In this document: positions 6,892 to 63,501 of the stretch, one piece after another
How positions within the stretch are numbered: the stretch's first letter is position 1
Layout of the letters: the number at the start of each line of letters is the position of its first letter
Source of the DNA: Candidatus Levyibacteriota bacterium
GTDB lineage: Bacteria; Patescibacteriota; Microgenomatia; Levybacterales; UBA12049
Assembly (NCBI GenBank): GCA_041906785.1
Contig: JAYRIM010000017.1
Coordinates: forward strand, 210-64,209
Direction: 5' to 3'
DNA length: 64,000 nucleotides
Notes under the pieces: model-generated
Seen by the model: only the letters and a program-made list of their open reading frames with translations
The model's database searches: none
What the model was told of the DNA's origin: nothing
Position numbers and translations under genes: made by a program

Positions 6892-7371
6892 TTATCCTGC
6901 TACTCCTCTATTCGTTTCTGCTTTCGTCTGAGCTCGACCTACTGCAATAGGTTGCTTTTTCTCTGCTTCTTGTAACTCCTCCATTTTCATAGCTTCTTTT
7001 TCCTGTTCTTCACGTTCAAGCCTATCGGATACATTCTCCTCTGGTTTCGGACGGTTAAATGTAGGGTCATAATAAGTCTTTTTATGTTGTTCTACATGCA
7101 GTTTTTCTCTAATTGCCTTTAACTGCTGATCTTCTGCTGCTTTTTTCTGTTCAGGAGGTAGGTTATCTGTCGCTTGAGCAATTGCATCTTTATCAAGTGG
7201 TTTGTTTGGATCCATGTTCTGTACACCATATAACCCTTTTGTAATATCTTCCGTAGTTACACCCTGTGTATCAGTAGGTTTAATAACTTGTTGGGTTTGA
7301 GAAGCAGTTTGTTGCTTTGTCACAACTCCTTGTTCTACTAACGCTTCCTCTGATGTGAAATTTTTATTCAT
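6892..7371 (-). CDS. Hypothetical low-complexity (Q/E/K/T-rich) protein
   Basis: 159-aa ORF with no TM segment and a charged coiled-coil-like C-terminal half. Confidence 0.4.
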   Translation of the reverse strand: MNKNFTSEEALVEQGVVTKQQTASQTQQVIKPTDTQGVTTEDITKGLYGVQNMDPNKPLDKDAIAQATDNLPPEQKKAAEDQQLKAIREKLHVEQHKKTYYDPTFNRPKPEENVSDRLEREEQEKEAMKMEELQEAEKKQPIAVGRAQTKAETNRGVAG

Positions 7372-7381
7372 ATACGAATTA

Positions 7382-7801
7382 CTACGAATGTAATCCTAAT
7401 CTATCCGAATCAGGCAGATTAAGAATCCTCTTATATTCTAGGCTACTTCCATAGAAATTAACAAGAATACCTAGCTCGAGACTGGTTGCATGCAAATATG
7501 CCTTTATCTGCTTATAATCATTTTTTGTAAATATGGGTTTTACTTTTAATTCAACAACTATTTTTTCATATAAAAGAAAATCTAAATAATATTTTCCAAT
7601 CCCCTCACCATCAATTTTTAGATCCACCATAATTTCCCTCTTGAAAGGAATTCTATATTTACGCAGTTTTACCTCGACGGCACGTTGATAATATTTCTCT
7701 TGGTACCTATTACCTAATTCATTATGAACTTCAAAAAAGATTCCTGTTATTATGTAACTCAACTCGGGATAAAGCACTTTTTTATCAATATTTGGATTCA
7801 T
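7382..7801 (-). CDS. GxxExxY family protein (PD-(D/E)XK-like 'IVS-type' protein)
   Basis: 139 aa. The family hallmark GxxExxY is present as YPELSYIITGIFFEVHNELG, followed by DFLLYEKIVVELK and GILVNF motifs. The gene is bounded by ATTCGGAT/ATCCGAAT inverted motifs. Confidence 0.8.
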   Translation of the reverse strand: MNPNIDKKVLYPELSYIITGIFFEVHNELGNRYQEKYYQRAVEVKLRKYRIPFKREIMVDLKIDGEGIGKYYLDFLLYEKIVVELKVKPIFTKNDYKQIKAYLHATSLELGILVNFYGSSLEYKRILNLPDSDRLGLHS

Positions 7802-7829
7802 TCGGATGTAATTTGTAGGAATTCGGATA

Positions 7830-8441
7830 TCAATAAACTGACCTTCCTTCTAAAGCTCTCGTTAATGTACTACTATCAGCATATTCTAAATCAGCACCAA
7901 TAGGCAAACCACGCCCAATTCTCGTAATTTTGAGATTTGAGTTTTGAGATTTGAGATTTTTTGCAATATACATAGCAGTTGCTTCACCTTCCATTGTCGG
8001 ATTCGTCGCCAATATAACTTCATTGACTCTTTGACTCCCTGTCTCTCTGACTCTCTGTATTAACTGTCCAATATAAATCTCATCAGGACCAATATTATTT
8101 AATGGATCGATTTTCCCATGCAGCACATGATATACTCCCTTATAATGACCGCTTTTTTCTAGAGCGAGCACATCTAACGGCTGTTCTACGACACAAATAG
8201 TAGTTTTATCTCGTTGTGAATCACTGCAAATTGAACACGGATCCATTTCATCTACTGAATAACAAGTAGAACATATAACGGTATTTTGTTTTAACTTTTG
8301 AACTGCAGAAGCAAATGAATCGAGCTCATGCTGTGGCACATGCAATAGGTAAAAAGTCAACCGTTGTGCAGATTTCGGTCCGATACCAGGCAATCTTTCA
8401 AATGATTCAATTGTGTTTTGTATTGCTTTAGGAATTTTCAT
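7830..8441 (-). CDS. recR: Recombination protein RecR
   Basis: HhH (LPGIGPKSAQRL), C4 zinc finger (CSTCYSVDEMDPCSIC) and Toprim (ILATNPTMEGEATAMY). Confidence 0.95.
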   Translation of the reverse strand: MKIPKAIQNTIESFERLPGIGPKSAQRLTFYLLHVPQHELDSFASAVQKLKQNTVICSTCYSVDEMDPCSICSDSQRDKTTICVVEQPLDVLALEKSGHYKGVYHVLHGKIDPLNNIGPDEIYIGQLIQRVRETGSQRVNEVILATNPTMEGEATAMYIAKNLKSQNSNLKITRIGRGLPIGADLEYADSSTLTRALEGRSVY

Positions 8442-10498: not shown

Positions 10499-12118
10499 TT
10501 ACGACTTCAGTACTACTTCAACCTTTATAGTATTTCCAGTAAGAACTTTACATGCTTCTTCGAGAATAGCACGTGTTTTTGCTTGATCTAACCGTTCTTT
10601 GTGAAACGTATAAGCAGTTTCAATAACTAATGTTTTTTTATCAAATTGTTTTATCATACATCCACGTAAAACCCCCGCAATAGTATGATTGTGCTTTTTC
10701 ATTTCTCCGATAAGCGCTTGCCAGAAGCTCCCCAACCATTCTGCTGTAATCTCTGTATTTGAAGTTTGTAATAAATCGATTGATGGTTTCACATCTCCTG
10801 CTTTTTGTTCATCTGTTGCTATTTTTTCTTCACCATATAACGCCTTTACCCGCGCCAAATCCCCAAGTTGTTTTCTCATGCTCGCCACTGTAACTCCGTT
10901 ACTAGAAGGTTTGCTAATAGTTACCTTCGTAGTCTCTGTAACTTCGACCTTTTCCGTTTCATGTAAAGTTGTATAATCAATAATTGCTAATTCTAAAGGC
11001 AGCTGCGGCACAACTGCATACTTCATCTCCTGTATCACTCTACCCAATAAATCAAGCAAAACTTTTATTTGTTCAATAGGTAATTCTGCATTCTGAATTC
11101 TAGATTCTGAACTCTGTAAGACTCCAACTTTTACTAATAACAGGCTATGCAACGTGTCGAACAACTGTTCTGTAAAAGTTTTTATGTCTACACCCTCAGC
11201 CACGACTTGTTCGATACGTTTTATTCCTTCTTTAGTATCCTTTTTCTGCAAACTTTCAATAATACTTAATACTTGATATTTGATACTTGATACCTTATAT
11301 CGTTTTTCTAGAAGATCAAGCGTTATATGTTTCTCTCCCATCGAGACTAATTCTTCGAGAATCTTATGAGCATCACGAAATCCTCCATCTGCCAAATGGA
11401 CAATTGATTCAATAGCAGCTTCATCAATATCCAATTTCTCATTCTCTGCAATTCGTTTGAAAGAGCGGGCAATCTCTTCTTTTGTGGCAGGAGAAAACTG
11501 TACTTGAAAACATCGAGAGATAATCGTTGCAGGTACCTTTTGCAATTCTGTCGTACAAAGAATAAACATCGCATGAGCTGGAGGCTCTTCTAGGGTTTTT
11601 AAAAGTGCATTAAATGCCTCAGTAGTAAGCATGTGAACTTCATCTATGATATATATTTTTTTTCGAGCTGAGAGTGGAGAGAGTTTTATTTTTTCCCGTA
11701 AATCCCGAATCTCATCAATCCCTCGATTCGATGCTGCATCTATTTCAAGAACATCCAAATTCGCACCGTTTGTTATAGAAATACATTGCTCACATGCATT
11801 ACACGGCTCCAATCGGTTGTCAGTTGTGGGTTGTGAGTTATCAGTTAACTCTTCAGAAGACTTTTTATTTTTGAGTTTTAATTTTGAGTTTTGACTTTTG
11901 AATTTTGAATTGTTTTCACAATTCACAACCTTCGCAACAATTCTCGCCGTAGATGTTTTTCCTAAACCTTTCGGACCAGTGAAGAGAAAAGCATGGGGTG
12001 GTTCCGGTAAAGATAAAACAGCTGTTAATGTCTTTCTAATATATTCACTATCTAAGTCATCTATTTTTTGTGGACGATATTTTCTGTAATAAACCATACT
12101 ATGAAAATTAAAAATCAA
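10499..12118 (-). CDS. dnaX: DNA polymerase III subunit gamma/tau
   Basis: Walker A (GPKGLGKTS), zinc module (C...PCNACEQC), IYIIDEVHML, SRC motif (SRCFQ). A roughly 33-aa low-complexity insert (NSKFKSQNSKLKLKNKKSSEE...) splits the Zn module. Confidence 0.9.
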   Translation of the reverse strand: MIFNFHSMVYYRKYRPQKIDDLDSEYIRKTLTAVLSLPEPPHAFLFTGPKGLGKTSTARIVAKVVNCENNSKFKSQNSKLKLKNKKSSEELTDNSQPTTDNRLEPCNACEQCISITNGANLDVLEIDAASNRGIDEIRDLREKIKLSPLSARKKIYIIDEVHMLTTEAFNALLKTLEEPPAHAMFILCTTELQKVPATIISRCFQVQFSPATKEEIARSFKRIAENEKLDIDEAAIESIVHLADGGFRDAHKILEELVSMGEKHITLDLLEKRYKVSSIKYQVLSIIESLQKKDTKEGIKRIEQVVAEGVDIKTFTEQLFDTLHSLLLVKVGVLQSSESRIQNAELPIEQIKVLLDLLGRVIQEMKYAVVPQLPLELAIIDYTTLHETEKVEVTETTKVTISKPSSNGVTVASMRKQLGDLARVKALYGEEKIATDEQKAGDVKPSIDLLQTSNTEITAEWLGSFWQALIGEMKKHNHTIAGVLRGCMIKQFDKKTLVIETAYTFHKERLDQAKTRAILEEACKVLTGNTIKVEVVLKS

Positions 12119-12591: not shown

Positions 12592-12691
12592 ATACGAATT
12601 TCTACAAACTAGATCCGAATTGTTCCGAATTATGAAATATTATTCGTAGCAATTAGGATTAAAAACATTTTTATTCGGATTTATTCGTAGC

Positions 12692-12874
12692 TTAGTGTGT
12701 TCGACGTTTTAAACGACGTAAATGCTGTTCTGCAAGCTTCTTTTTCTCTTGCTTGTTTAAATGAAAACGTCTATCTTTCACTTCTTGAATGATATTCGAC
12801 TCAACAACTTTACGAGTAAAGTTTTTAATAAGTTGGTCATCACTTTGGCCTGGTACTTTTTTAACAAAAACCAT
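12692..12874 (-). CDS. rpsU: 30S ribosomal protein bS21
   Basis: 60 aa, very basic, with the RRLKRR C-terminus. Strong SD (AAAGGAGGTG) 8 nt upstream. Confidence 0.85.
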   Translation of the reverse strand: MVFVKKVPGQSDDQLIKNFTRKVVESNIIQEVKDRRFHLNKQEKKKLAEQHLRRLKRRTH

Positions 12875-13506: not shown

Positions 13507-13615
13507 AATATAAAATTGTTATATTGCTATAGTGTTTTATTGTTAAGTTAAATTCCTTCCCCCAAGAGAGAAGGTCAGGATGAGGAAACAATAGAGCAAT
13601 AAAACAATATAACAA
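13507..13615. repeat. Inverted-repeat pair of about 28 nt (TTGTTATATTGCTATAGTGTTTTATTG // CAATAGAGCAATAAAACAATATAACAA) enclosing a 45-nt spacer
   Basis: Visible by reverse-complement reading. Sits between the DHH phosphoesterase stop and the HIT start. Same architecture as the IR pairs that bound the four-helix-bundle cassettes, but with no cargo. Confidence 0.5.
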
Positions 13616-14635
13616 TTACTGATAGAGTTTTTCAAGCACTTTTATTATTTGATCTAAAGATAAAGTCGTGGGTACCATTTTCGGATTTTTAACACTTCCA
13701 TTTAATAGCATTTTTTTACTGACATGAAGAAACCAAGTCGCCCCAGCATCCATCTTTTTTAATTGCTCATACGCAAGAGTCAAATCAATTCCTTGTGAGA
13801 TTTCCGCCTTTGACCCCTTTGGCTCTTCTGTCTCATATATCCCCTCTGCTCTATTTGGAAGTGTTTTAATCGATACATGACCTCTTCTCGGATCTTTTCT
13901 AATAACTAATACATATCCTTTCTTCTGTGCTAACTTTACGACCGACTCATTCGCACTTAACAAACCTATTGCTTTTCCATACTTTGTCTTAAATTCAATA
14001 GCATTTCCTGCTTCTTCTCCGTCAATTTTTGATTTTTGCTCTCGGCCTGAGCTCGAGCCGAAGGCATTTTTAATTTTTAATTCTCTTTCTGCCCATACTT
14101 TATTTTCAAAGTATGATAATAAATAATCTAAATTCGTACAGCCGAATTCTACATAATAGTCATCCTCCCCAGGTTTTTTATACTGTAACCCTTCGTTAAT
14201 ACCGAAAAGTGAAAAATCATGGTAATCAGCATCTGCTTGGGGACGAAAAACTTCTTGGAAATGGTCATACGCTACGACAAGGGATACAATTCGTGAAATT
14301 GCTTCTACTGCTTGCTCTTTTAATGGCTGTTCTGATACCTGACGCTGGCTTTGGACGAAATCCCAAGCACGCTTAGCACCGCAAGTGTTTTGATCAGGTG
14401 TTTGATGATGATCCAATGGTCCTAGACCAGTGTCTACATGGATAATCTCTGTATTCCCAATAGTAAGTACAGGCTCGGATTCAAATTCGGGATGATTTTT
14501 AACTCTATCGCTTCGCAGACCAGCAGGTACAAATTCTATATCTGCCTTTTCCCAGCCAGGTAAGAAACGTTTTAATACCCAAACTGATGTAATCGCATCA
14601 AGGTCTGGCGACATATGAGTGACAATAATTTTCAT
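13616..14635 (-). CDS. DHH-family phosphoesterase (NrnA-like)
   Basis: N-terminal HMSPDLDAITS (DHH motif I/II) and GLGPLDHHQ (DHH motif III). Confidence 0.75.
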   Translation of the reverse strand: MKIIVTHMSPDLDAITSVWVLKRFLPGWEKADIEFVPAGLRSDRVKNHPEFESEPVLTIGNTEIIHVDTGLGPLDHHQTPDQNTCGAKRAWDFVQSQRQVSEQPLKEQAVEAISRIVSLVVAYDHFQEVFRPQADADYHDFSLFGINEGLQYKKPGEDDYYVEFGCTNLDYLLSYFENKVWAERELKIKNAFGSSSGREQKSKIDGEEAGNAIEFKTKYGKAIGLLSANESVVKLAQKKGYVLVIRKDPRRGHVSIKTLPNRAEGIYETEEPKGSKAEISQGIDLTLAYEQLKKMDAGATWFLHVSKKMLLNGSVKNPKMVPTTLSLDQIIKVLEKLYQ

Positions 14636-14861
14636 AATGGCTTTAAGTATACCATACCATTATTTTTAGTTTAAACTCCTATTTCTAAAGCATCAAAATT
14701 AAAAATGAAAAGATAAAAGTTAAAAATTGGATTTTATATTTTTTAATTTTGAATTGTAACTTTTCATTTTTCACTTTTAACTTTTAATTCCTTCCTAGAA
14801 CTATTTTTACTTGACAAATGATTAATGATACGGGATCATAAATATATACCAAAGTTTTTTT

Positions 14862-21154: not shown

Positions 21155-22126
21155 CTACTTAGTCTTTACTGCATGTCCTCCGAATTCTCTTCGCAATGCA
21201 GCAACCATCCTTGCGGCAAATGATGAGGAAATTGTAGTATCAGTACTTGACCTTCTCCGGAAATCCAGTGATTGTTCGATATTTTCTACTGGTACATGTT
21301 CCTCTCTTCCCTGTTTCACTGTCCATTCAGCTTCACCCGTAGCACTAATTACACCATCCAAACCTTCTAATCGAGGATCTTTCTCCAACGCTTCTTTTGC
21401 ACAATCAAGCAGGAAACTGGAAACTATAGTTCCTTTTTGCCAAAGTTTTGCAACATCAACCAAACTGAAATTATATGGCGCTTTCTCTAATACACCGAAA
21501 CCTTCACCAATCGCTTGCATCATGCCATATTCAATACCATTATGAACCATTTTTACGAAGTGCCCAGCTCCATCTATGCCGAAATACGCATGCCCTCCAT
21601 TTGGCTTTTTAAGAGTCTCCAAAATTGGCTCAATGTGAAAATATGCTGTTCTGTCTCCACCGACCATTAACGGATACCCATTTTCTGCAGCTTTAATACC
21701 TCCACTAACTCCTATTCCTAAATATCTTACACCTTTATCTCCAGCAATCTTACTTCTCCGTTCAGTATCTTTATAAAAAGAGTTTCCACCGTCTATTATT
21801 ATGTCTCCCTTTTCAACAAACTTAAGGATCTCTTGGAAAAGAGTTTCTGTCGCTTCTCCAGCTGGAACCATCATCCATAAAACGCGAGGTATTGTAAGAC
21901 TCTTCACAAGTGCTTGAATATCTACTGGAGCGATAAACCGTTCCTCCAAATGTTTTTCGCCTAGAACCAAACGAAATTGCTCAGTTACCTCTCTGCTTCT
22001 ATTCCACGCGACTACTACATGACCGTCGAGCAATAATTTCTCAACCATTCTCGTTCCCATTTTTCCAAGCCCCATAAATCCTACTTGCATAATCTCATTA
22101 TAAATTTCTCCATTCTCATTTCTCAA
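21155..22126 (-). CDS. gnd: 6-phosphogluconate dehydrogenase (decarboxylating), short NAD-binding form
   Basis: MQVGFMGLGKMGTRMVEKLL Rossmann N-terminus. 6PGDH C-terminal domain motifs (GHFVKMVHNGIEYG). Confidence 0.85.
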   Translation of the reverse strand: MRNENGEIYNEIMQVGFMGLGKMGTRMVEKLLLDGHVVVAWNRSREVTEQFRLVLGEKHLEERFIAPVDIQALVKSLTIPRVLWMMVPAGEATETLFQEILKFVEKGDIIIDGGNSFYKDTERRSKIAGDKGVRYLGIGVSGGIKAAENGYPLMVGGDRTAYFHIEPILETLKKPNGGHAYFGIDGAGHFVKMVHNGIEYGMMQAIGEGFGVLEKAPYNFSLVDVAKLWQKGTIVSSFLLDCAKEALEKDPRLEGLDGVISATGEAEWTVKQGREEHVPVENIEQSLDFRRRSSTDTTISSSFAARMVAALRREFGGHAVKTK

Positions 22127-22136
22127 CTCTCAATCT

Positions 22137-25318: not shown

Positions 25319-25425
25319 ATGTATATTGTAACAAATCTATTAGCTTAAAACATAACCGTTCATGATGGATTAATCGTCTGCCAGATACCAAACATACCTG
25401 ACTTTGACGAACACGGTTATATTTT

Positions 25426-25941
25426 TTATAACGGTGCTACCGGCGCTACTACTGCTGCCGTTAAACCTGCCTCTACAGCTGCTGCAGGCGCTATTCCTGC
25501 TACTGCCGGCTCAACAACTGCTGACTCAACCCCAATTCCAGCTACTTGAGGAGCTATACCAGCTACTTCAATTCCTGGAGTAATACTTGCTGTCTGTACA
25601 TTAAATACTTCTACTCCAGTTCCAACTCCAGAAACAGGATTTACAACCTCTCCTCCTACTCCTGGGATTTGGCCTCCTGTTTCTAATCCTGTAGGATTCC
25701 CAGCAATCTGAGTTGCGGGTGTATTATCTAATGTATGTCTGGCAATTATCCTTCTCGTTACTTCGCTAGTGGCTCCCTGAATTACTCCCCGTGCAATTGC
25801 ACCCGAGACATCATGCCCTTCTCTTTGAGCATTCTTAATTGCCATCTGTCTTGCTGCCGCTTCTTGTACCTCTATAGGAACTTGTGAATATTCTCCCATA
25901 TTTCTCACCTCCTTCGAGTGCCATAGTCTTGACGAAGGCAC
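25426..25941 (-). CDS. Gly/Ala/Val-rich hypothetical protein
   Basis: Low-complexity GVG/AGI repeats. The likely start is MGEYSQ at about 25896. Confidence 0.35.
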   Translation of the reverse strand: MPSSRLWHSKEVRNMGEYSQVPIEVQEAAARQMAIKNAQREGHDVSGAIARGVIQGATSEVTRRIIARHTLDNTPATQIAGNPTGLETGGQIPGVGGEVVNPVSGVGTGVEVFNVQTASITPGIEVAGIAPQVAGIGVESAVVEPAVAGIAPAAAVEAGLTAAVVAPVAPL

Positions 25942-25995
25942 TCTTCGGTCGCCTTAATTTTGATGTTGGCGGCCCTTCGTCCGCCGAAGCTTTAA
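25921..25995. repeat. Cluster of GC-rich small hairpins with a CCTTCG/CGAAGG and GAAGCTTTA core
   Basis: cgaaggcactcttcg, ggcggcccttcgtccgcc and ccgccgaagctttaagcgaaggcgga. The last one is about 80% identical to cctccaaagctttagcgaaggagga at 21075-21100. Confidence 0.45.
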
Positions 25996-26168
25996 GCGAA
26001 GGCGGATTTCGCTGTAGATCAATTACAGTCGTAGAATAACAAAAAGAGGCCAGCACCTTCTTGACGCTATAATGACAGCTAGCTAACAAGATGCTTACAA
26101 AACATTGTGCTTGTAACTTGTAATGCAAGAGATTTTACGTAATACGTTATACGCTACACGTTTCACGA

Positions 26169-27397: not shown

Positions 27398-27428
27398 ATA
27401 GCTTAGAGCATAGAGCATAGAGCTTAGG
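27398..27428. repeat. Left inverted repeat of four-helix-bundle cassette 1 (tagcttagagcatagagcatagagcttaggg)
   Basis: Reverse-complement partner at 27794-27824 (ccctatgccctaagctctctgctcttagcta). Confidence 0.7.
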
Positions 27429-27783
27429 GTTTTAAAATGGATGCTTTAAAAGCTCTTATTTTTTTAGATAATATTTCTGCCTTGTTATATAAATCTTTAT
27501 ATGTCTGATGAGAGATATAGTGTAACTCTTTTGCAACAAATAAATGTGATACTGCTTCATATAAAGACTTAACTGAAACATCAAGAAAATATGCAAATTC
27601 TTTCTTTGAAGAGCTCCCACTTCCTTCCGAAATATTTGCAGCAATAGAAGTTGCTGCCCTTCTTAATTGATCAACTAATGAGAAGAATTCCTCACGGGGA
27701 AATGTTTTTGTAATTATATAAATATCTTTAATGAACAATACAGAATCTTTCCAAATATCCAAAGTTTCAAATCTAAATGCCAT
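27424..27783 (-). CDS. Four-helix-bundle protein (TIGR02436, '23S rRNA intervening-sequence protein' family)
   Basis: DQLRRAATSIAANISEG hallmark. About 120 aa. Confidence 0.85.
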   Translation of the reverse strand: MAFRFETLDIWKDSVLFIKDIYIITKTFPREEFFSLVDQLRRAATSIAANISEGSGSSSKKEFAYFLDVSVKSLYEAVSHLFVAKELHYISHQTYKDLYNKAEILSKKIRAFKASILKP

Positions 27784-27793
27784 ATATAATCTA

Positions 27794-27824
27794 CCCTATG
27801 CCCTAAGCTCTCTGCTCTTAGCTA
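27794..27824. repeat. Right inverted repeat of four-helix-bundle cassette 1; overlaps the frr stop codon
   Basis: See the left arm at 27398-27428. Confidence 0.7.
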
Positions 27825-32981: not shown

Positions 32982-33569
32982 TTACTGAAAAGCTAGATAC
33001 TTCTTCATCTTTTTCTCAAAATCTTCAAACGAATAGTAATATTCTGCCTTAATGCCAAACTTTCTTGCTGCTTTTACATTCTCTTTAAAATCATCCCAAA
33101 AAATCACTTCATCTTTATCTAATTTCTGATCATCAATGATATACTGAAAAAACTTGTGATCTGGTTTCAAATGGCCTATATGTCCTGAACCATAAAATTT
33201 ATGAACGACTTTCCCAAGCCCCACCACATCCCGAAGATATTCTGTTCTATATTTCTCATTATTTGTACCCACATAAATGGTAATTCCTTTTTTTCTAAGT
33301 TTTTCTATATATGAAAGTAATTCCTGATTTAATTCTCGTTCTCCTTCAAACCATTCTTTTAAAAGTTCATCAACACTACCTTCCCAACCCCATTCATGCA
33401 TATATTTTGGAAGCTCTTCTTTCAAATCAGCTTTTCCGACCAAACATTCTTGAAATACCCCCTCAAAAAACTTCTTCATCACATCTTCAGACAAACCGAG
33501 CCGTTTACTGAAATATTCCTTCCGAAAAACTAACACTCCATCTGCATCAAAAATAATTGTTTTTATCAT
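32982..33569 (-). CDS. HAD-superfamily hydrolase
   Basis: Motif I IIFDADGVLV. Motif IV at about WDDF. Confidence 0.8.
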   Translation of the reverse strand: MIKTIIFDADGVLVFRKEYFSKRLGLSEDVMKKFFEGVFQECLVGKADLKEELPKYMHEWGWEGSVDELLKEWFEGERELNQELLSYIEKLRKKGITIYVGTNNEKYRTEYLRDVVGLGKVVHKFYGSGHIGHLKPDHKFFQYIIDDQKLDKDEVIFWDDFKENVKAARKFGIKAEYYYSFEDFEKKMKKYLAFQ

Positions 33570-33582
33570 AAATAAGTATTAT

Positions 33583-33604
33583 GTAGTAAGTAGTATGTAT
33601 TATG
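33583..33604. repeat. Left inverted repeat of four-helix-bundle cassette 2 (gtagtaagtagtatgtattatg), built from 7-nt AGTAKTW words
   Basis: Near-perfect 22-nt reverse complement of 33973-33994 (cataatacatactacttactac). Confidence 0.75.
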
Positions 33605-33968
33605 AATTATTTTTTAAACTTTTTAGTAATCCATTAATAAGTTTACTTACTAAAATAGTTCTCTCAGCCAATTCCTGGAATTTTTCATTTGAGATATACT
33701 CTAAATCTCGAGCAATTAAGAGCTGGTTCTGTAGTTCTGTTAATGATCCTAAAGCCATATAAAGAAACTGCGCTTTTTCTTTTTTCGTTTGTCGTGAAAA
33801 CCCTTCTGCGATATTACTTGTTATAGAAATAACACAGCGACGCATTTGGTCTACTAAGCCGAACTTCTCATAATTTGGAAAAGTAAATAATATCTTATGA
33901 ACTTCAAGCACTATTTTGTGTCCTTCCTTCCAAGCATTCAGATCTGTAAACGATCTTATTTTATTCAT
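33600..33968 (-). CDS. Four-helix-bundle protein (TIGR02436 family), copy 2
   Basis: DQMRRCVISITSNIAEG hallmark. Confidence 0.85.
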   Translation of the reverse strand: MNKIRSFTDLNAWKEGHKIVLEVHKILFTFPNYEKFGLVDQMRRCVISITSNIAEGFSRQTKKEKAQFLYMALGSLTELQNQLLIARDLEYISNEKFQELAERTILVSKLINGLLKSLKNNS

Positions 33969-33972
33969 ACTA

Positions 33973-33994
33973 CATAATACATACTACTTACTAC
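33973..33994. repeat. Right inverted repeat of four-helix-bundle cassette 2; overlaps the last codons and stop of the downstream HIT gene
   Basis: See 33583-33604. Confidence 0.75.
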
Positions 33995-34445
33995 TAAAGT
34001 ATTTCTTCAATCTATCAGCATACACTTTCCTCTCCTCTGGTGTCGTGGAGATTTTATGCAATATATTTCCGTACAAATCGTCATTTTCATACCGTGGAAA
34101 GACATGCATATGATAATGAAATGCATGTTGATTACCTGCGGGTTCGTTATGCTGCGCTGTAGATATTCCATCACACATATATGCCTCTTTCAAAGCAAAA
34201 GCAACTTTTTTCACTGCATCATAAATATGATGACCAATCTCGTTTGGCAGATCATAGATGTTTTCGAAGTGCTGATTCGGAACGATAATGACATGTCCAA
34301 GATTATTTTTAATGAAAAAAGATGAGATAAACGCGGTAACCCACTGATTGGCGTAAACAATATCAGATCGTTTAATCAATGTTTGTGGAATTTCTAAACC
34401 TGCAACAGCAGGACAAATCGGACATTTGTATCCTTGTTCATTCAT
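33984..34445 (-). CDS. HIT family protein (second paralog, Cys-containing N-terminus)
   Basis: HYHMHVFPR histidine triad. CPICPA N-terminus. Confidence 0.8.
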   Translation of the reverse strand: MNEQGYKCPICPAVAGLEIPQTLIKRSDIVYANQWVTAFISSFFIKNNLGHVIIVPNQHFENIYDLPNEIGHHIYDAVKKVAFALKEAYMCDGISTAQHNEPAGNQHAFHYHMHVFPRYENDDLYGNILHKISTTPEERKVYADRLKKYFSSK

Positions 34446-37408: not shown

Positions 37409-37485
37409 TTTAAGATAATAAGAATTACGATTTAAGAATAAACGCTAATTTCTTTCATAAATCTTAAATCATAAATCGTAAATCT

Positions 37486-39246: not shown

Positions 39247-39993
39247 TCATTTTTCATTTTTATTTTTTAATTTCCCTAGAATATCATCTGTCACTTGTTC
39301 TACAGGTTTTTCCCCATCTATTAGAACAAACTCCTTCTTAAATTCTTTTATTAACCAACGATATCCAGCCACAACTTTCTCGAGTTTTTCTTTTTTTTCG
39401 TAGACATCATTTTCTGCTTTTCTGTCTTTCTTTTTTAATGACCTCCGTAAACCTTCTTCAGGACTAATATCTATATAAAAAACAATATCAGGAATAATAA
39501 ATTGGTGGTAGTGGGATAATAAACCCTGTGTTATAAGCATTCGATCAGCTCCTTCACGCGTAAAATTAACACCTTTATCCATTAATCCATAGGGAATCGC
39601 TGACCAAAAACATCGGTCTGAAATCACGACATGTCCTTTTTTTAATGCAGGGATTACTATTTCATCCTGGTTTATCGCACGATTCGCAGACATCCAGTAT
39701 TGAAATGCTTGACCAGAGATTGCAATCTCTCCTCGAAAAAATTGCATAATCTGCTCTCCGCCTGGAAGAGTTACACGAGGCTCGCTTGTCATAGTCACTT
39801 TTTTTCTCTTTTTTATGAAATATGTTTCTAAAGCTTTTGCTTGAGTCGTTTTTCCCGAACCATCTATGCCTTCAAGGGCTATATAGAAACCCTTAAATGG
39901 GTTCTTTTTTAATGAGATATCTAATTCGATATGGTATTCCATGTTTCGTATCGAGTATAGAGTATTTTGTATTTTGTATATCATTATTATCAC
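39247..39993 (-). CDS. Thymidylate kinase-like dNMP kinase (paralog 2)
   Basis: P-loop IALEGIDGSGKTTQ. SDRC motif (for DRY) further on. Confidence 0.7.
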   Translation of the reverse strand: MIIMIYKIQNTLYSIRNMEYHIELDISLKKNPFKGFYIALEGIDGSGKTTQAKALETYFIKKRKKVTMTSEPRVTLPGGEQIMQFFRGEIAISGQAFQYWMSANRAINQDEIVIPALKKGHVVISDRCFWSAIPYGLMDKGVNFTREGADRMLITQGLLSHYHQFIIPDIVFYIDISPEEGLRRSLKKKDRKAENDVYEKKEKLEKVVAGYRWLIKEFKKEFVLIDGEKPVEQVTDDILGKLKNKNEK

Positions 39994-40028
39994 TTCATAC
40001 TAAATACTTAATACTAGATACTTTATAC

Positions 40029-40616
40029 TTATTTTGAGAGGTTTTTCCAGTATTGGCTTGCAATTGGTTTAGGATTTTTACTAAATGGATTTTTATATTT
40101 TTTAGTTCCAAGAACTGCCTCACCATATGTATGTTCTGCTGGAGATGACAATAATGAGAATCGTATTTGCCCAATCGGCATATAAGGATAAATGATCATT
40201 GGTTGTTCTGTTAAATTTGTTATTTCCAATGTTATATGTCCAGCCCACCCGGGATCGACAAATCCAGCCGTCGCATGGATTACTAACCCCAGCCGTCCAA
40301 GCGACGATTTTCCTTCTACATTTGCTAACAGTTGATTACTAAGAGCAAACCATTCCGACGTAACACCTAAGATAAACTCCCGCGGATGAATGACAGTCCC
40401 TTGCTTTTCATCCATCACTTCGTATTCCATATATTCATCCACAGGTTTTTTTAAATCGATTACTGCGTTCTTTATTCTTCTTCTAGCGAAGGTAAGAATT
40501 GTAGGGGCGATATGAACATCAAGCGATGATGGTTGAAATGTTAATTTGTATGGGGATTGTATCTCAAGTTTTTTTTCTTTTAAGGCTTTTTTAATATCTC
40601 TATCAGATAGAACCAT
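40029..40616 (-). CDS. dcd: dCTP deaminase
   Basis: MVLSDRDIKKAL N-terminus, then GLVIHATAGFVDPGW and the conserved E-containing strand. Confidence 0.9.
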   Translation of the reverse strand: MVLSDRDIKKALKEKKLEIQSPYKLTFQPSSLDVHIAPTILTFARRRIKNAVIDLKKPVDEYMEYEVMDEKQGTVIHPREFILGVTSEWFALSNQLLANVEGKSSLGRLGLVIHATAGFVDPGWAGHITLEITNLTEQPMIIYPYMPIGQIRFSLLSSPAEHTYGEAVLGTKKYKNPFSKNPKPIASQYWKNLSK

Positions 40617-56540: not shown

Positions 56541-57941
56541 ATGAAAGAATATCTCGTAACGCTTATTGTTCTCTATCTTCGTTTCTTTGCAGTTAAAACA
56601 CTAAAAAATCACCGACCTACAATCATCGGTATTACTGGTACAGCAGGAAAATCTTCAGCCCGCGATATGATCAACGGGATATTAAAAGACCACTATGCGA
56701 CAAAAGTCGTGCATGGAAACTCTGAGACAGGCATTCCTCTCGGAATCATGGGTATTAAACCGAAGAGTCTGGGATTTGAAACATTTACAAAGAGTGTTTT
56801 TGATTGGCTAACTATTATTTTTCGCGCACCCTTCTCTACGCACCACCTGAAAGGTGTCAAATATCTGATCGTAGAAATGGGAATCGATGATCCTTTTCCA
56901 CCAAAAAATATGGAGTATCTCCTCTCAATAGTAAAACCCGATATCAGTATTTTTCTTAATGTGGGTGCGATGCATACCATGCAATTTGAAAAATTACTTC
57001 CAAATTCTTCAAAAGGAACAAGAAGTTGGTTTAATAATGATCAGGAAAAAACTGAATATCTTATCGGACGAATAGCTGATGAAAAAGCGAAAATCATTAC
57101 TGAATCTGGGTGTAAAATCGGTATTTATAATGCTGATAATTCCTACATCTTAGAAACTATCCGTCAATATGCAAATAAAGCTACAACCCTTCTAACGTTC
57201 GGCAGTAAACCCAACAATTCATTAACATATAAAAAATATGCAGTTGATCTACATGGTACAACCTTTACATTTGAGTACGCTAACGGCGAAATTATCATAC
57301 AAATTTTAGGCTATCTTCTACCAGAAACCTATAGAGAGACTATCGCTGCAGCTATTCTAGCCGGATTACAAACAGGATTAACTATAAAACAAATAATTGA
57401 GTCTCTCGAAAAGAATTTCTCATTACCGAAAGGGAGAGCGACATTACTAAAAGGCATACATGATAGTATACTTATCGATTCTTCATATAATGCCTCGCGG
57501 ATAGCAGTAGAAGGTATGTTAGGACTCGTCTCTGTGTTAAAAAAAGAAACGAAACGACCTACTGTATTCATTATGGGTGATATGCGGGAACTTGGTAGTG
57601 AGACACAATACGAACATGAAACAGTGGCAGAGAAAATTATTGGAACTGTAGATTATCTCTATTTGGTAGGACCTCAAACCAGAAGGTATGTGCTTCCGGT
57701 TATTCAACAACGTGAAGACACATTTAGAGAAATACGCTGGTTTGAATCATCAACACGCGCTGGAGATCATGTAAAAGAAACGCTTCCCGAACACGCTATT
57801 GTATTAATAAAAGGTTCCCAAAATACAATATTTCTCGAAGAAGCAGTGAAATTATTACTAAATGATAAAAGTGATGAATCTAAACTTTGTCGACAAGAAG
57901 ACTTTTGGATGAAGAGAAAAAAAGTGATCAGTAATCAGTAG
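56541..57941 (+). CDS. murF: Mur ligase family protein, probably UDP-MurNAc-tripeptide--D-Ala-D-Ala ligase
   Basis: IIGITGTAGKSS P-loop, DSSYNAS, and a Mur ligase C-terminal domain. Its stop codon lies inside the left IR of the adjacent cassette. Confidence 0.75.
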   Translation: MKEYLVTLIVLYLRFFAVKTLKNHRPTIIGITGTAGKSSARDMINGILKDHYATKVVHGNSETGIPLGIMGIKPKSLGFETFTKSVFDWLTIIFRAPFSTHHLKGVKYLIVEMGIDDPFPPKNMEYLLSIVKPDISIFLNVGAMHTMQFEKLLPNSSKGTRSWFNNDQEKTEYLIGRIADEKAKIITESGCKIGIYNADNSYILETIRQYANKATTLLTFGSKPNNSLTYKKYAVDLHGTTFTFEYANGEIIIQILGYLLPETYRETIAAAILAGLQTGLTIKQIIESLEKNFSLPKGRATLLKGIHDSILIDSSYNASRIAVEGMLGLVSVLKKETKRPTVFIMGDMRELGSETQYEHETVAEKIIGTVDYLYLVGPQTRRYVLPVIQQREDTFREIRWFESSTRAGDHVKETLPEHAIVLIKGSQNTIFLEEAVKLLLNDKSDESKLCRQEDFWMKRKKVISNQ

Positions 57942-57952
57942 TCAGTTATCAG
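57926..57952. repeat. Left inverted repeat of four-helix-bundle cassette 3 (gatcagtaatcagtagtcagttatcag); overlaps the murF stop
   Basis: Partner at 58290-58319 (ctgataactgattaccgactactgataact). Confidence 0.7.
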
Positions 57953-58280
57953 CTAAGGAACGCGAAAAAGCATTTATTTGCCTACCTAAAAATTTAAAAT
58001 CTTCTTGAAGGAGATCCGTATTAATTCCATATACAATTGCCACAACTTGAAGTAATGCAACCGTTTCATTTGCAGAACCTGAAGCAATTTGGAGATAATT
58101 TTGAAATTGCTTAGTTGACCTGCAGTACCCTTCAGTAATATTTGCAGCAACTGAAATTGCCGCTCGACGTATTTGATCAATCAGCGCAAAGTCTTTAAGT
58201 AACTGAGGATTGTTACGAGTTAAAATATATACTTCTGCGACTAACGCTAGAGCTTTCTTGTATATCTTCAACTTTTCCAT
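57942..58280 (-). CDS. Four-helix-bundle protein (TIGR02436 family), copy 3
   Basis: DQIRRAAISVAANITEG hallmark. Confidence 0.85.
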   Translation of the reverse strand: MEKLKIYKKALALVAEVYILTRNNPQLLKDFALIDQIRRAAISVAANITEGYCRSTKQFQNYLQIASGSANETVALLQVVAIVYGINTDLLQEDFKFLGRQINAFSRSLADN

Positions 58281-58289
58281 CTGTTTTCA

Positions 58290-58319
58290 CTGATAACTGA
58301 TTACCGACTACTGATAACT
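58290..58319. repeat. Right inverted repeat of four-helix-bundle cassette 3; reaches the stop codon of 58318..59424
   Basis: See 57926-57952. Confidence 0.7.
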
Positions 58320-59424
58320 ACCTTCCTCCCTGGACTGACAATTCACGAATAAAGAGATTATAATCATAGTGATTTACTGTTCCCTCATCTGTTAAATCAG
58401 CCATATTCTTCTGCTCTGTTGTACAAGCTCTTGCTCGTGTAATAATCGTTCCAGTGTAACATCCATAAAGAATATTATAATCGAGAATATTTAGTTGGTT
58501 ATCAGTCACTACGTCACCTGTTACAAGAGTCATCGCAGGTAAAGAAACTGTTTGACCTGGGGTGAGAAGTTGTATTCCTGGAAAAGCATTTCGTAAATAC
58601 TGATCAGACTTCAATGTCACGATATAGTTTCCTTGTGTAATATCTGTGCCCAAATCTGCACTTCCTGTAAACGAACCGCTTTCTGAAGCATATTGCATCC
58701 GAGATGTAGCTATAGCGATACGTCTGTTTGCACTATCTAATACTTCTATCGAAACAGCCCTATCTTTTCTTCGAGGATTTTTATTACTTAAACTATTGGC
58801 ATTAGGGTTCGCATTATCTCCACTGTTCCCTAATCCATGAAGAAATATATTGTAATTTATCTGCACTAGCGGGCGCGGTGTAGGCGTAGCAGTCGGTTGC
58901 GGTGTCGATGATGGGTTTGGTGTTACTGTCGCTGATGGCCGAGGTGTGGCTGTTGGAATAGCTGTTGGCTGTGGAATATCTCTATCGTTTACATATGGGG
59001 TAGGAGTTGCTGACGGTTCACAACGGGTTTGAGTACAATCACTTGGGCAACTGCATGCATCTTCATTAAAGTCACATGTTCTATCACCACAATACGGAGC
59101 ACATGCATTTGATGTGCATGTACATATTACATCCCAACATCTCCAATCATATCCGCCGCACGGTGTAAATGAACACTGTACACCATAACTAATATGCCCT
59201 AGGGTTGAACAAGAGTTACCAGTATTACCTGAATCACCATCAGTTGAAATGTTTGTCTCTGAACAACGAGGGTTATCACCACCTACACAGCTATAGTATT
59301 TTGTTCCGCACGCTTGAGCAAAAACTGAAGGAATATTTTGAAATACAAAAATAAACAGGATAATAAAAAAAACTACAAATCTCATGCTTTCTTCCACTGT
59401 AGCATTGAGGAAAAGAAGTGTCAA
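58318..59424 (-). CDS. Secreted Cys-rich protein with PT linker, conserved C-terminal module and dockerin-like tail
   Basis: Signal/TM at the N-terminus. A 30-Cys N-domain. The (TPxPSAT)n linker. IFLHGLGNSGDN...NKNP module. GDVVTDNQLNILDYNIL...ADLTDEGTVNHYDYNLFIREL. Confidence 0.55.
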   Translation of the reverse strand: MTLLFLNATVEESMRFVVFFIILFIFVFQNIPSVFAQACGTKYYSCVGGDNPRCSETNISTDGDSGNTGNSCSTLGHISYGVQCSFTPCGGYDWRCWDVICTCTSNACAPYCGDRTCDFNEDACSCPSDCTQTRCEPSATPTPYVNDRDIPQPTAIPTATPRPSATVTPNPSSTPQPTATPTPRPLVQINYNIFLHGLGNSGDNANPNANSLSNKNPRRKDRAVSIEVLDSANRRIAIATSRMQYASESGSFTGSADLGTDITQGNYIVTLKSDQYLRNAFPGIQLLTPGQTVSLPAMTLVTGDVVTDNQLNILDYNILYGCYTGTIITRARACTTEQKNMADLTDEGTVNHYDYNLFIRELSVQGGR

Positions 59425-62346: not shown

Positions 62347-62564
62347 TTTTGTTATGCAACTCCAAGTGTGGGTTCGGATGGAATCGGACCATCTACTTCT
62401 TCATTATCAGTGAAGCGTTCTACCGGTGAACTACGAACCCATGATGAACACATAGTATTTTACCAAATTTGAGGACAAAGGCCAATGCGCTTTAAAAAGC
62501 TATCAGTTATCGGTCATTAGTCGTCAGAAACTCATAACCTACAACTTACAACTATAACTAGATA

Positions 62565-63388: not shown

Positions 63389-63461
63389 GGCGCAGTGGCG
63401 AAGTAGCTAACGCAGCTGTCTGCAGAACAGCCATTCAGGGGTGCAACTCCCCTCTGCGCCT
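63389..63461 (+). tRNA. tRNA-Cys (anticodon GCA), 73 nt, no encoded CCA
   Basis: The cloverleaf folds by hand. The acceptor GGCGCAG/CTGCGCC is 7/7. The anticodon stem GCTGT/ACAGC is 5/5, with loop C-U-GCA-G-A. The variable loop is 5 nt. The T stem AGGGG/CCCCT is 5 bp. The discriminator U73 is the Cys identity element. T-loop TGCAACT (G55) and C19 are unusual. Confidence 0.7.
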
Positions 63462-63485
63462 CAAGCAAGTAGCAAGTAGCAAGTT
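63462..63485 (+). repeat. Tandem heptamer (AGCAAGT)x3 immediately 3' of tRNA-Cys
   Basis: caagcaagtagcaagtagcaagttgc. Confidence 0.6.
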
Positions 63486-63501
63486 GCAAAAGGATTAAAC
63501 G

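Follow-up and report, generated by a model that had tools for sequence, protein, structure and literature searches.

The four genes c1 to c4 of the 64-kb window (the whole stretch of 64,000 nucleotides that was analyzed) are probably the cargo of stem-loop cassettes of the intervening sequence (IVS) type, which lie in operon junctions, would be co-transcribed with their neighbors and are likely to be excised by RNase III. For approximately 35 years, IVSs have been regarded as a peculiarity of rRNA genes, with cargo of unknown function, and we found no prior description of IVS-type cassettes in mRNA operon junctions within the literature searched. According to the model that we favor, each ORF would form the loop of a hairpin that has short, G-rich tandem repeats as its 5′ arm and the complementary array as its 3′ arm. 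The cassette would be transcribed with the host operon, and its stem of 22 to 40 bp would serve as a substrate of RNase III, as predicted by homology with the IVSs of Coxiella, Leptospira, and Salmonella. By this cleavage, the polycistronic transcript would be rid of the cassette RNA, so that essential genes could tolerate an insertion between them, and the start region of the cargo might also become free for translation.

A first-pass annotation, made from the sequence alone, had assigned c1, c2, and c3 to the four-helix-bundle family TIGR02436 and c4 to the GxxExxY family TIGR04256. All four ORFs were found where it had placed them (Table 1), every one on the minus strand, and HMM searches bore out the families, with full-length TIGR02436 scores of 109.3, 120, and 80.1 bits for c1, c2, and c3 (cutoff 24) and a TIGR04256 score of 93.7 bits for c4 (cutoff 35). 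The corresponding PF05635 scores were 114.2, 124.8, and 82.9 bits (cutoff 33.8), and c4 matched PF13366 (PDDEXK_3) with 97.1 bits (cutoff 22). The annotation had also stated that both families are known mainly as 23S rRNA IVS cargo. This was incorrect, as most members of both reside outside rRNA (more than 5,000 cellular relatives), and the "IVS cargo" label reflects the name of the family and not the actual whereabouts of its members. The c1, c2, and c3 proteins are only 32-35% identical in pairwise comparison, no further paralogs of the cargo genes were present within the window, and c2 has 5,423 relatives, with which it forms a large CPR subfamily. The cargo proteins are basic (pI 9.1-9.6), and the four-helix-bundle proteins have a strongly conserved core with invariant motifs and 55-77% identity across CPR classes, indicating that they are themselves under selection. 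Their nearest solved structures, 2GSC and 2RLD, contain five chains each. A comparison of the cassettes with the PADLOC models gave a single marginal match (E = 0.0097) and no membership in a defense system, and no four-helix-bundle relatives were found on viral contigs.

Table 1. Cargo genes, arms, lone hairpins, and single arrays, in positions of the window
Feature	Position	Strand	Remarks
c1 cargo, 119-aa four-helix-bundle protein (TIGR02436/PF05635)	27424..27783	-	pI 9.3; HMM
c1 5′ arm (RNA sense), degenerate (AGCNNAG)n heptamer array	27793..27824	-	adjoins/overlaps frr stop (27822-27824)
c1 3′ arm, complementary heptamer array	27400..27431	-	overlaps cargo stop codon
c2 cargo, 122-aa four-helix-bundle protein	33600..33968	-	HMM
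c2 5′ arm, (GTAGTAW/GTATTAT)n	33963..34002	-	overlaps last codons and stop (33984-33986) of HIT gene
c2 3′ arm, complementary heptamer array	33568..33610	-	overlaps cargo stop
c3 cargo, 112-aa four-helix-bundle protein	57942..58280	-	HMM
c3 5′ arm, (ATCAGTA/GTCAGTT)n type	58289..58330	-	overlaps last codons and stop of dockerin-domain protein
c3 3′ arm	57912..57955	-	opposite strand holds last ~8 codons and stop of murF
c4 cargo, 139-aa GxxExxY/PD-(D/E)XK_3 protein	7382..7801	-	HMM
c4 5′ arm, CGAAT/CAAAT motifs 10-11 nt apart (ATCCGAATTCCTACAAATTACATCCGAATG)	7794..7837	-	begins just past recR stop (7830-7832)
c4 3′ arm, ATTCG motifs	7361..7402	-	ends in ...ATTCGTATATGAAT
Cargo-less hairpin, arm motifs as in c4	12592..12695	-	fold z -2.2
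Cargo-less intergenic hairpin, tandem repeats of period 8	13514..13617	-	arms 31 nt, 84% complementary; z -5.0
Cargo-less hairpin	14686..14786		at other junction
Single (NTGAGAA)n heptamer array, ORF 22137-23585/gnd junction	22104..22133	-	four-helix-bundle cassettes there in L001 and L059
Single (AAGTATN)n heptamer array filling dcd/tmk spacer	39992..40031	-	counterpart junction of L002 holds c2-like cassette

Each of the four-helix-bundle genes was claimed to be enclosed by an inverted-repeat pair of its own, and for all three the arms were located and found to be complementary. The repeats are 27407-27429/27801-27823 in c1 (23 nt, 87% complementary), 33583-33610/33967-33994 in c2 (28 nt, 93%), and 57914-57952/58290-58328 in c3 (39 nt, 79%). 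The c2 repeat includes the 22-mer that had been reported for it, a perfect 22-bp core in which 33973-33994 pairs with 33584-33605. The arms of c1, c2, and c3 are mutually unrelated in sequence. What the annotation did not contain is that the arms are tandem-repeat arrays, each paired with its complement, and that the repeat unit differs with the cargo, being 7 nt in the four-helix-bundle cassettes and a CGAAT motif recurring approximately every 10-12 nt in the GxxExxY cassette. The window holds 18 tracts of period 7, against 0-3 at each other period from 4 to 12, and the TRF repeats gave the same picture. Folding of the whole-cassette RNAs closed each in a terminal stem of approximately 22-40 bp, with z-scores of -3.6, -3.7, and -4.1 for c1, c2, and c3, as the annotation had predicted; the c4 stem is weaker (z -0.8). 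When flanking inverted repeats were scored for 70 non-overlapping ORFs of the window, the four cargo genes were the top four (22, 18, 17, and 15), the next best ORF scored 10, and the median was 6. An Rfam scan of the window identified one tRNA only, with no rRNA and no family matching the hairpins.

The arms fit closely between the flanking genes. The c1 cassette sits exactly between frr and rseP, as had been proposed, its arms running from the frr stop codon to 22 nt before the rseP start (27377), and the c2 3′ arm extends to the start codon of the HAD gene at 33569. On one side of c3 is the gene of the dockerin-domain protein (58318-59424), and on the other is the convergent murF (56541-57941, plus strand). 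In c4, the ATTCGTATATGAAT at the 3′ end contains the start codon (7371) of the downstream gene. The assertion that in every case an arm overlaps the stop or last codons of a neighboring gene holds for frr (stop only), HIT, murF (approximately eight codons), and the dockerin protein, but at recR the arm starts just past the stop.

The window also contains hairpins and arrays with no cargo gene. The 3′ end of the 12592-12695 hairpin is identical to that of c4 at 21 of 23 positions, and the downstream gene, ybeY, has its ATG AAT there. We read this hairpin as a paralogous or decayed copy; the kinship of the 13514-13617 hairpin with the cassettes is putative. Heptamer arrays stand alone as well, some of them inside unrelated ORFs.

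The association of cargo and arms extends far beyond the window. Among relatives, 77 of 89 four-helix-bundle genes had a flanking inverted-repeat score of at least 12, compared with 11 of 558 control ORFs. A strong period-7 tract was present in 39 of 83 5′ flanks and 49 of 83 3′ flanks, and the only other period observed was a single case of period 8. The position of the arms is regular, in that a median of 10 nt separates the end of the 5′ arm from the start codon and the 3′ arm sets in within the final codons of the ORF. In 76 of 78 cassettes, the 5′ arm contains more G than C, which amounts to an orientation-specific geometry. Arms pair better within a cassette (median -41 kcal/mol) than between cassettes (-29 kcal/mol). 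Inverted arrays with a 7-nt period were found in six of eight examples located on plasmids or chromids of Cyanobacteria, Bacteroidota, and Alphaproteobacteria (7-8 nt in Picosynechococcus), and inverted repeats were absent from two, both cyanobacterial. Nostoc and Riemerella have the same architecture, and in Xanthomonas a four-helix-bundle gene lies between accB and accC with GGGAATC arrays on both flanks. In total, the association holds in five phyla. The CGAAT core of the GxxExxY arms recurs in a Treponema cassette, and distant phage PDDEXK_3 homologs, which served as a negative control, lacked inverted repeats. Within the limited collection of literature searched, no paper linked PF05635/TIGR02436 genes outside rRNA with inverted heptamer arrays.

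The proposed location in operon junctions was supported by the orientation of the upstream neighbor, which matches that of the cassette in 82 of 86 cases among relatives, with median gaps of 43 and 26 nt. Around c1 and c2, the two cassettes scanned, no promoter or terminator was suitably placed, and promoter-like matches were fewer than in shuffled sequence. Because of this co-orientation and the absence of flanking signals, we read the cassettes as part of the host operon. Arm mismatches showed no excess of RNA-specific wobble (68 of the G:U type versus 71 of the A:C type), and the sense RNA duplex had no more than a marginal advantage in stability over the antisense duplex (48 versus 31 cassettes, p = 0.09); in the absence of such strand bias, the inverted repeat could be maintained at the level of DNA. 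Shine-Dalgarno complementarity is depleted upstream of the downstream genes, for which the longest-ORF start calls are a possible confounder, and the insertion may thus affect the host. The 64-kb window contains no RNase III gene.

RNase III cleavage leaves the period of 7, and its change with the type of cargo, without explanation. One hypothesis, which we offer as a tentative possibility, is that the cargo protein recognizes, or helps to generate or maintain, its own periodic arms, with the hairpin as a putative binding or autoregulatory site and not just a substrate of RNase III. The target of the four-helix-bundle protein, which is basic, Avd-like, and probably pentameric, would be nucleic acid with a 7-nt periodicity, and that of the PD-(D/E)XK protein of the GxxExxY family would be motifs approximately one helical turn apart. 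Consistent with this hypothesis, period 7 accompanies four-helix-bundle cargo in CPR, Cyanobacteria, Bacteroidota, and Proteobacteria despite unrelated units, and the GxxExxY arms of the same genome differ in spacing, although the GxxExxY periodicity comes from essentially one lineage. The basic pI, the five chains of the two crystal structures, and the conserved core motif point in the same direction. However, unit sequences differ widely even among close relatives, so that the protein could recognize only shape or periodicity, if it recognizes the arms at all. The solitary arrays and those inside unrelated ORFs also argue against such coupling, as does the finding that heptamers are over-represented in many bacteria, for which polymerase slippage was proposed as the cause (PMC4692102), and heptamer tract density had no clear relation to the number of four-helix-bundle genes in a small sample of 14 loci. 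Coupling of protein and repeat can coexist with RNase III processing of the IVS type. A bolder proposal, which we consider doubtful, is that TIGR02436 proteins and heptamer repeats constitute one system, in which the protein would read arrays of 7-nt period or contribute to their creation and maintenance. The cassettes would then be where the unexplained heptamer microsatellites come from that are scattered over gene junctions and even coding regions of the CPR genome, of heterocystous cyanobacteria (STRR), and of Xanthomonas (GGGAATC repeats), and GxxExxY nucleases would form a parallel system with motifs approximately one helical turn apart.

The comparison of orthologous junctions, which the first-pass annotation had suggested, revealed a patchy pattern: some junctions hold a cassette, others are empty, and still others keep the arms of a decayed one. 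At frr/rseP, a cassette is present in the window and in the relative L002, and L001, L003, L004, L008, and L009 have no four-helix-bundle ORF. The L002 ortholog of c1 is frameshifted, and its arms are unlike those of the window, yet they are 95% self-complementary. In L001, a c2 cassette has decayed with intact arms (site B), and the frr/rseP junction has a significant cargo-less hairpin. Such a hairpin is not a general property of empty frr/rseP junctions, as those of L004 and L008 are unstructured by folding.

That arms outlast their cargo at L001 site B and in L002 could mean that the hairpin is a domesticated host module, selected for mRNA processing, stability, or translational coupling, with the ORF as dispensable baggage. 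The cargo-less hairpins of the window and of L001 frr/rseP and the long-term synteny of c4 at recR agree with this proposal, and a similar view of IVS RNA was taken by the authors of the Coxiella study (PMC4990558). We nevertheless judge it unlikely. The L004 and L008 junctions and the single arrays of the window have no significant structure, so that a hairpin is not required at these junctions, and conservation across CPR classes indicates that the cargo is selected in its own right.

The annotation had suggested a mobile or selfish cassette that targets operon junctions. The junction location and patchiness stood up. Signs of recent transposition were not seen: an all-versus-all comparison of approximately 90 cassettes with their flanks detected near-identical cassettes only in identical contexts. 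Cassettes like c2 occupy HIT/HAD, dcd/tmk, thyA/folA, and zwf/gnd; the protein P0031 is found on 24 contigs, at thyA/folA every time; and c4 orthologs occupy the recR junction in at least four relatives, a pattern that suggests a stable resident more than it does a selfish element. The presence of two different cassette lineages at zwf/gnd is compatible with targeting. As judged from these comparisons, the data show that cassettes are inherited vertically over long periods, keep their arms after losing the cargo, and occasionally appear at new junctions, and that arm complementarity is maintained while the repeat units change. We regard the cassettes as probably semi-selfish passengers of low activity, and not as active transposons. 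It is very unlikely, in our estimation, that the inverted repeats are termini for a trans-acting transposase and that the cassette jumps as DNA in the manner of a MITE or IS element. The presence/absence polymorphism, the related cassettes at different junctions, and the occurrence of c4-type arms twice in one genome, once with no cargo, would fit such a transposon. However, c1, c2, and c3 share no terminal repeats and encode divergent proteins, inspection of the cassette flanks revealed no convincing target-site duplications, no transposase adjoins any of the cassettes examined, and the arms are variable-length arrays, not defined termini. The remaining explanation, that a heptamer-rich genome yields inverted pairs around small genes by coincidence, might draw on the frequency of heptamer arrays at junctions and even inside ORFs of the window, but it is scarcely credible and already contradicted by the controls, namely the top four ranks among 70 ORFs, the 77 of 89 versus 11 of 558 in relatives, the better pairing within cassettes, the association in five phyla, and the phage homologs with no inverted repeats.

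If our preferred reading, an IVS-type cassette excised at the RNA level, is true, then a hairpin-plus-ORF element resides between essential genes (frr/rseP, thyA/folA, accB/accC, cmr2/cmr3, and others) in CPR, Cyanobacteria, Bacteroidota, and Proteobacteria. IVSs would then represent a general class of RNA-level-excised insertions, with a logic analogous to that of introns and inteins, and operons would be predicted to contain RNase III processing points on a wide scale. The heptamer tandem repeats of bacteria, which have long lacked an explanation, would also be tied to a very large uncharacterized protein family. The arms alter the C-termini and start regions of neighboring genes, which matters for the annotation of CPR genomes.

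Several known systems resemble the cassettes in part. MITE and REP-BIME elements are likewise small, intergenic, and bounded by inverted repeats, with cargo-less derivatives such as the 12592-12695 hairpin, but the cassettes have no family-wide termini, target-site duplications, or recent copies, and their arms are variable tandem arrays. Membership among MITE/IS transposons was rejected on account of the unrelated arms and missing duplications, the duplicated c4-type arms being a partial exception. Intercistronic mRNA hairpins processed by RNase III are known from phage T7 early transcripts, the lambda N leader, and rpsO-pnp. Like the cassettes, they have a long imperfect dsRNA stem between cistrons, cleavage of which would part the cistrons and could alter translation or stability; unlike the cassettes, they are not known to have an ORF in the loop or periodic repeats. 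Avd, the accessory protein of diversity-generating retroelements (DGRs; bAvd, PF22296/NF033474), has a distantly related basic four-helix-bundle fold, and solved relatives crystallize with five chains. The identity of the cargo with Avd was rejected, as HMM scores were below the cutoffs (30.1 and 31.2 versus 80 bits; 23.7 and 33.8 versus 40 bits) and the immediate neighbors are housekeeping genes. In an unsystematic inspection, neither a reverse transcriptase nor a TR/VR (template/variable repeat) pair was noticed near the cassettes, and to our knowledge Avd genes have not been described as hairpin-enclosed.

The arrays of the window, with 7-nt units and a mostly intergenic position, belong with the heptamer tandem repeats. 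The cyanobacterial STRR and GGGGA(T/C)T arrays and the GGGAATC repeats of Xanthomonas are also intergenic and, like the arms, often form inverted pairs between conserved genes. The latter, described as "G-quadruplex" repeats, include 70-75 convergent pairs (Rehm et al. 2015, PMC4692102), and exactly these arrays flank the Xanthomonas accB/accC cassette. That study regarded the repeats as sequence elements in their own right and made no mention of S23/four-helix-bundle genes, its text containing neither "S23" nor "hypothetical protein", whereas the arrays of the window are arms of a gene cassette.

The closest likeness is to the ORF-carrying 23S rRNA IVSs of Coxiella burnetii (S23p) and Leptospira, with which the cassettes share PF05635 cargo. 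The architecture had been proposed to be that of a classical 23S rRNA IVS, and an Azospirillum example (L109) agrees, being a genuine 23S rRNA IVS with a four-helix-bundle ORF inside the LSU rRNA and heptamer-array arms. The C. burnetii IVS matches as well, having a 28-bp stem with RNase III cleavage mapped in it and tandem GACAGAT heptamers before the ATG (PMC4990558). Cleavage is mapped in Coxiella, and excision from the primary transcript with no religation, a defining trait of IVS elements, is predicted by homology for the window cassettes. Unlike the 23S rRNA IVSs, the cassettes sit in protein-coding operons (frr/rseP, HIT/HAD, murF/dockerin, and recR), and their arms overlap stop or start codons of the neighbors. 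As in the rRNA IVSs, where the ORF-enclosing stem is approximately 28 bp, the cassette stems measure at least approximately 20 bp, that of c4 being weaker. Heptamers of the Coxiella type between the stem base and the ATG are found in c1, c2, and c3 but not in c4 (10-11 nt), and cassettes and 23S rRNA IVSs alike have a patchy phylogenetic distribution.

The first-pass annotation had claimed that four genes of the window, three encoding four-helix-bundle proteins and one a GxxExxY protein, are each bracketed by their own inverted repeat. Both the ORF positions and the repeats were borne out, and all four genes lie on the minus strand. The first three genes (cargo of cassettes c1 to c3) scored well above the cutoffs of TIGR02436 and PF05635, and the fourth (cargo of c4) well above those of TIGR04256 and PDDEXK_3; phmmer, run against every ORF of the window, detected no further paralogs. 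When 70 non-overlapping ORFs of the window were scored for flanking inverted repeats, the cargo genes took the top four places (22, 18, 17 and 15; next score 10, median 6), and a window-wide scan that made no use of annotation placed c1 to c3 among the few inverted repeats at least 79% complementary. On folding of the transcribed strand, a terminal stem of 22-40 bp closed each of c1 to c3 (z of -3.6 to -4.1), and the stem of c4 was weaker (z -0.8). As claimed, frr, the HIT gene, murF and the dockerin protein gene each have an arm overlapping their stop or last codons. The original observation is thus confirmed overall, and the results below extend it considerably.

Cassettes and other repeat features of the window
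Feature	Position	Inverted repeat	Complementarity	Unit or motif	Neighbours
c1	27424-27783	27407-27429 / 27801-27823	87%	AGCATAG	frr; M50 protease rseP
c2	33600-33968	33583-33610 / 33967-33994	93%; perfect 22-bp core	GTAGTAW	HIT protein; HAD protein
c3	57942-58280	57914-57952 / 58290-58328	79%	ATCAGTA	murF (convergent); dockerin-domain protein
c4	7382-7801			CGAAT/CAAAT, 10-11 nt spacing	recR; unknown protein
In-frame array, recR	7926-7961
In-frame arrays, dnaX	11082-11116; 11258-11301; 11816-11839; 11874-11914
In-frame arrays, further genes	53508-53572; 63461-63493
Hairpin with c4-type motifs	12592-12695				ybeY (downstream)
Tandem-repeat hairpin (z -5.0)	13514-13617
Tandem-repeat hairpin (z -2.3)	14686-14786
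Tandem-repeat hairpin (z -2.7)	37421-37485
Spacer, ~850 nt	25319-26168				rseP; next gene
GC-richer 12-15-nt repeats in spacer	25449-25530
tRNA gene, minus strand	62369-62440

A feature absent from the first-pass annotation is the periodicity of the arms. Those of c1 to c3, unrelated in sequence from one cassette to another, are degenerate arrays of a 7-nt unit, each paired with a complementary array, unlike the c4 arms with their wider motif spacing. Eighteen strong tracts of period 7 were counted in the window, as opposed to 0-3 of any other period from 4 to 12; the period-7 tracts lie mainly at gene junctions, some being in frame within recR and dnaX. The recR array encodes a K/S/Q/N-rich insert (for example, KSQNSNLK), dnaX carries four separate arrays, and further protein-coding genes contain others. 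Three cargo-less intergenic hairpins of short tandem repeats may be cassette relics or independent elements. The tRNA gene is the sole Rfam match in the window.

The same architecture was seen in relatives. Loci were drawn from a scan of frr relatives (13 loci, 11 from Levyibacteriota-like relatives) and from metagenomes scanned with a four-helix-bundle alignment (80 loci). A flanking-repeat score of at least 12 was reached by 77 of 89 four-helix-bundle genes versus 11 of 558 control ORFs, and a score of at least 16 by 39 versus 2. Strong periodic tracts in the flanks almost all had period 7. A median of 10 nt separates the end of the 5′ arm from the ATG, and this arm contains more G than C (76/78 cassettes); the 3′ arm starts inside the last cargo codons. 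The upstream neighbour shares the cassette's orientation in 82 of 86 cases, and the gaps to the neighbours have medians of 43 and 26 nt. Distant phage PDDEXK_3 genes, the negative control, had no flanking repeats. A GxxExxY gene on a Fusobacteria plasmid (CP102406.1, 519-893) is flanked by a 22-nt direct, not inverted, repeat, CAGATTTAATCCGTGTACCTAT.

Arm complementarity is maintained as the repeat units change, and cargo decays while the arms stay. The frr|rseP junction is occupied in the window and in another genome, L002, where the gene is orthologous and apparently frameshifted and the arms differ from those of the window, yet are 95% self-complementary; no four-helix-bundle ORF was found there in L001, L003, L004, L008 or L009. 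At HIT|HAD the closest relative, L001 (85% identity in frr), has a decayed c2 that carries a 126-nt internal deletion and other lesions but retains its start codon and the two arms. The spacer beyond rseP has no convincing ORF in the window, and L001 carries a 184-aa ORF at the matching position. Where L002 has a cassette at dcd|tmk and L001 one at zwf|gnd, the window has just one heptamer array at each junction. Because the latter junction, between a 482-aa protein gene and gnd, holds cassettes of very different lineages in L001 (15245-15601) and the distant L059 (2483-2860), the sequences suggest that particular junctions are used recurrently.

Cassettes resembling c2 occur at HIT|HAD, dcd|tmk and thyA|folA and in pilin-gene contexts. 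In the cassette comparison, near-identical copies were found in identical contexts only, c1 to c3 share no arms, and their proteins are at most 35% identical, all of which argues that movement is rare or ancient. Orthologs of the c4 gene (64-74% identity) lie directly downstream of recR in four relatives. The hairpin upstream of ybeY has no cargo; its 3′ end matches that of c4 at 21 of 23 positions, including the downstream ATG AAT. Ten thyA|folA contigs (L014-L023), chosen by exact protein identity and thus a biased comparison, share ~456 nt of 100% identical cassette DNA within thyA/folA sequence differing by up to 3-5%, a pattern that a recent sweep or spread by recombination could explain.

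The first-pass interpretation, an rRNA intervening sequence (IVS) architecture set in operons as either a mobile or selfish cassette or an RNase III processing module, is partly supported: the architecture is identical to that of rRNA IVSs, and the cassettes are embedded in operons with an orientation bias. Since no promoter or terminator signals flank c1 or c2, the cassettes would be co-transcribed with the host operon. By analogy with Coxiella, RNase III would cut the stem, and excision from the RNA would make insertion between essential genes tolerable. RNase III leaves the 7-nt period and its dependence on cargo type unexplained. Among the mismatches in the arms there is no wobble bias towards the sense strand (68 versus 71), so that the repeat may be maintained in the DNA itself, for instance through conversion of one arm by the other. 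The pyrimidine-rich 3′ arm takes the place of the downstream gene's usual Shine-Dalgarno region; strong anti-SD complementarity occurs in 3% of downstream neighbours versus 14% of other genes (p = 7e-13, with start-codon calls a possible confounder), a depletion hinting that translation may be coupled through the cargo ORF. With their basic character (pI 9.1-9.6) and strong conservation, the cargo proteins are probably functional nucleic-acid binders.

Outside close relatives, 6 of 8 plasmid or chromid examples had inverted heptamer arrays of unrelated unit sequence: (TAGGGAG)n in Nostoc edaphicum, antisense between nrdB and nrdA; (GAGTCAG)n in N. punctiforme; a cassette between cmr2 and cmr3 in Picosynechococcus; (GGTTTAA)n in Riemerella; (AAGGGAA)n in Geminocystis; and (GAGGACG/GATGACA)n in Azospirillum, a genuine IVS within LSU rRNA (Rfam model positions 668-1868). 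Four cyanobacterial plasmids (L104, L105, L106, L108) carry four-helix-bundle genes within cas operons (cas6|cas4, cmr2|cmr3), antisense at nrdB/nrdA, or between the genes for a secretion protein and the ABC transporter that serves it. The co-orientation rule of CPR is not universal. The solved structure closest to the c2 protein is XCC0516 (2GSC, five chains), whose homolog in X. campestris lies between accB and accC, flanked by (GGGAATC)n and near-complementary (CATTCCC)n. These GGGAATC arrays are the Xanthomonas 'G-quadruplex' heptamer repeats, described as 70-75 convergent pairs without mention of the four-helix-bundle gene family (PMC4692102).

As for known systems, DGR Avd genes (the cargo scores below cutoff), PADLOC defence genes and typical MITEs were rejected. 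The Coxiella IVS has a 28-bp stem with mapped RNase III cleavage and tandem GACAGAT heptamers, varying in copy number among strains, ahead of the S23p start codon (PMC4990558). Those heptamers and stand-alone heptamer repeats are already in the literature; in the literature searched we found no link between non-rRNA PF05635 genes and inverted heptamer arrays, although curated family descriptions may say more. The cassettes share every sequence-level feature of ORF-carrying IVSs except location in rRNA. Because that defining location is missing, we do not class them as rRNA IVSs but as a variant of the same kind of element, residing in mRNA operons.
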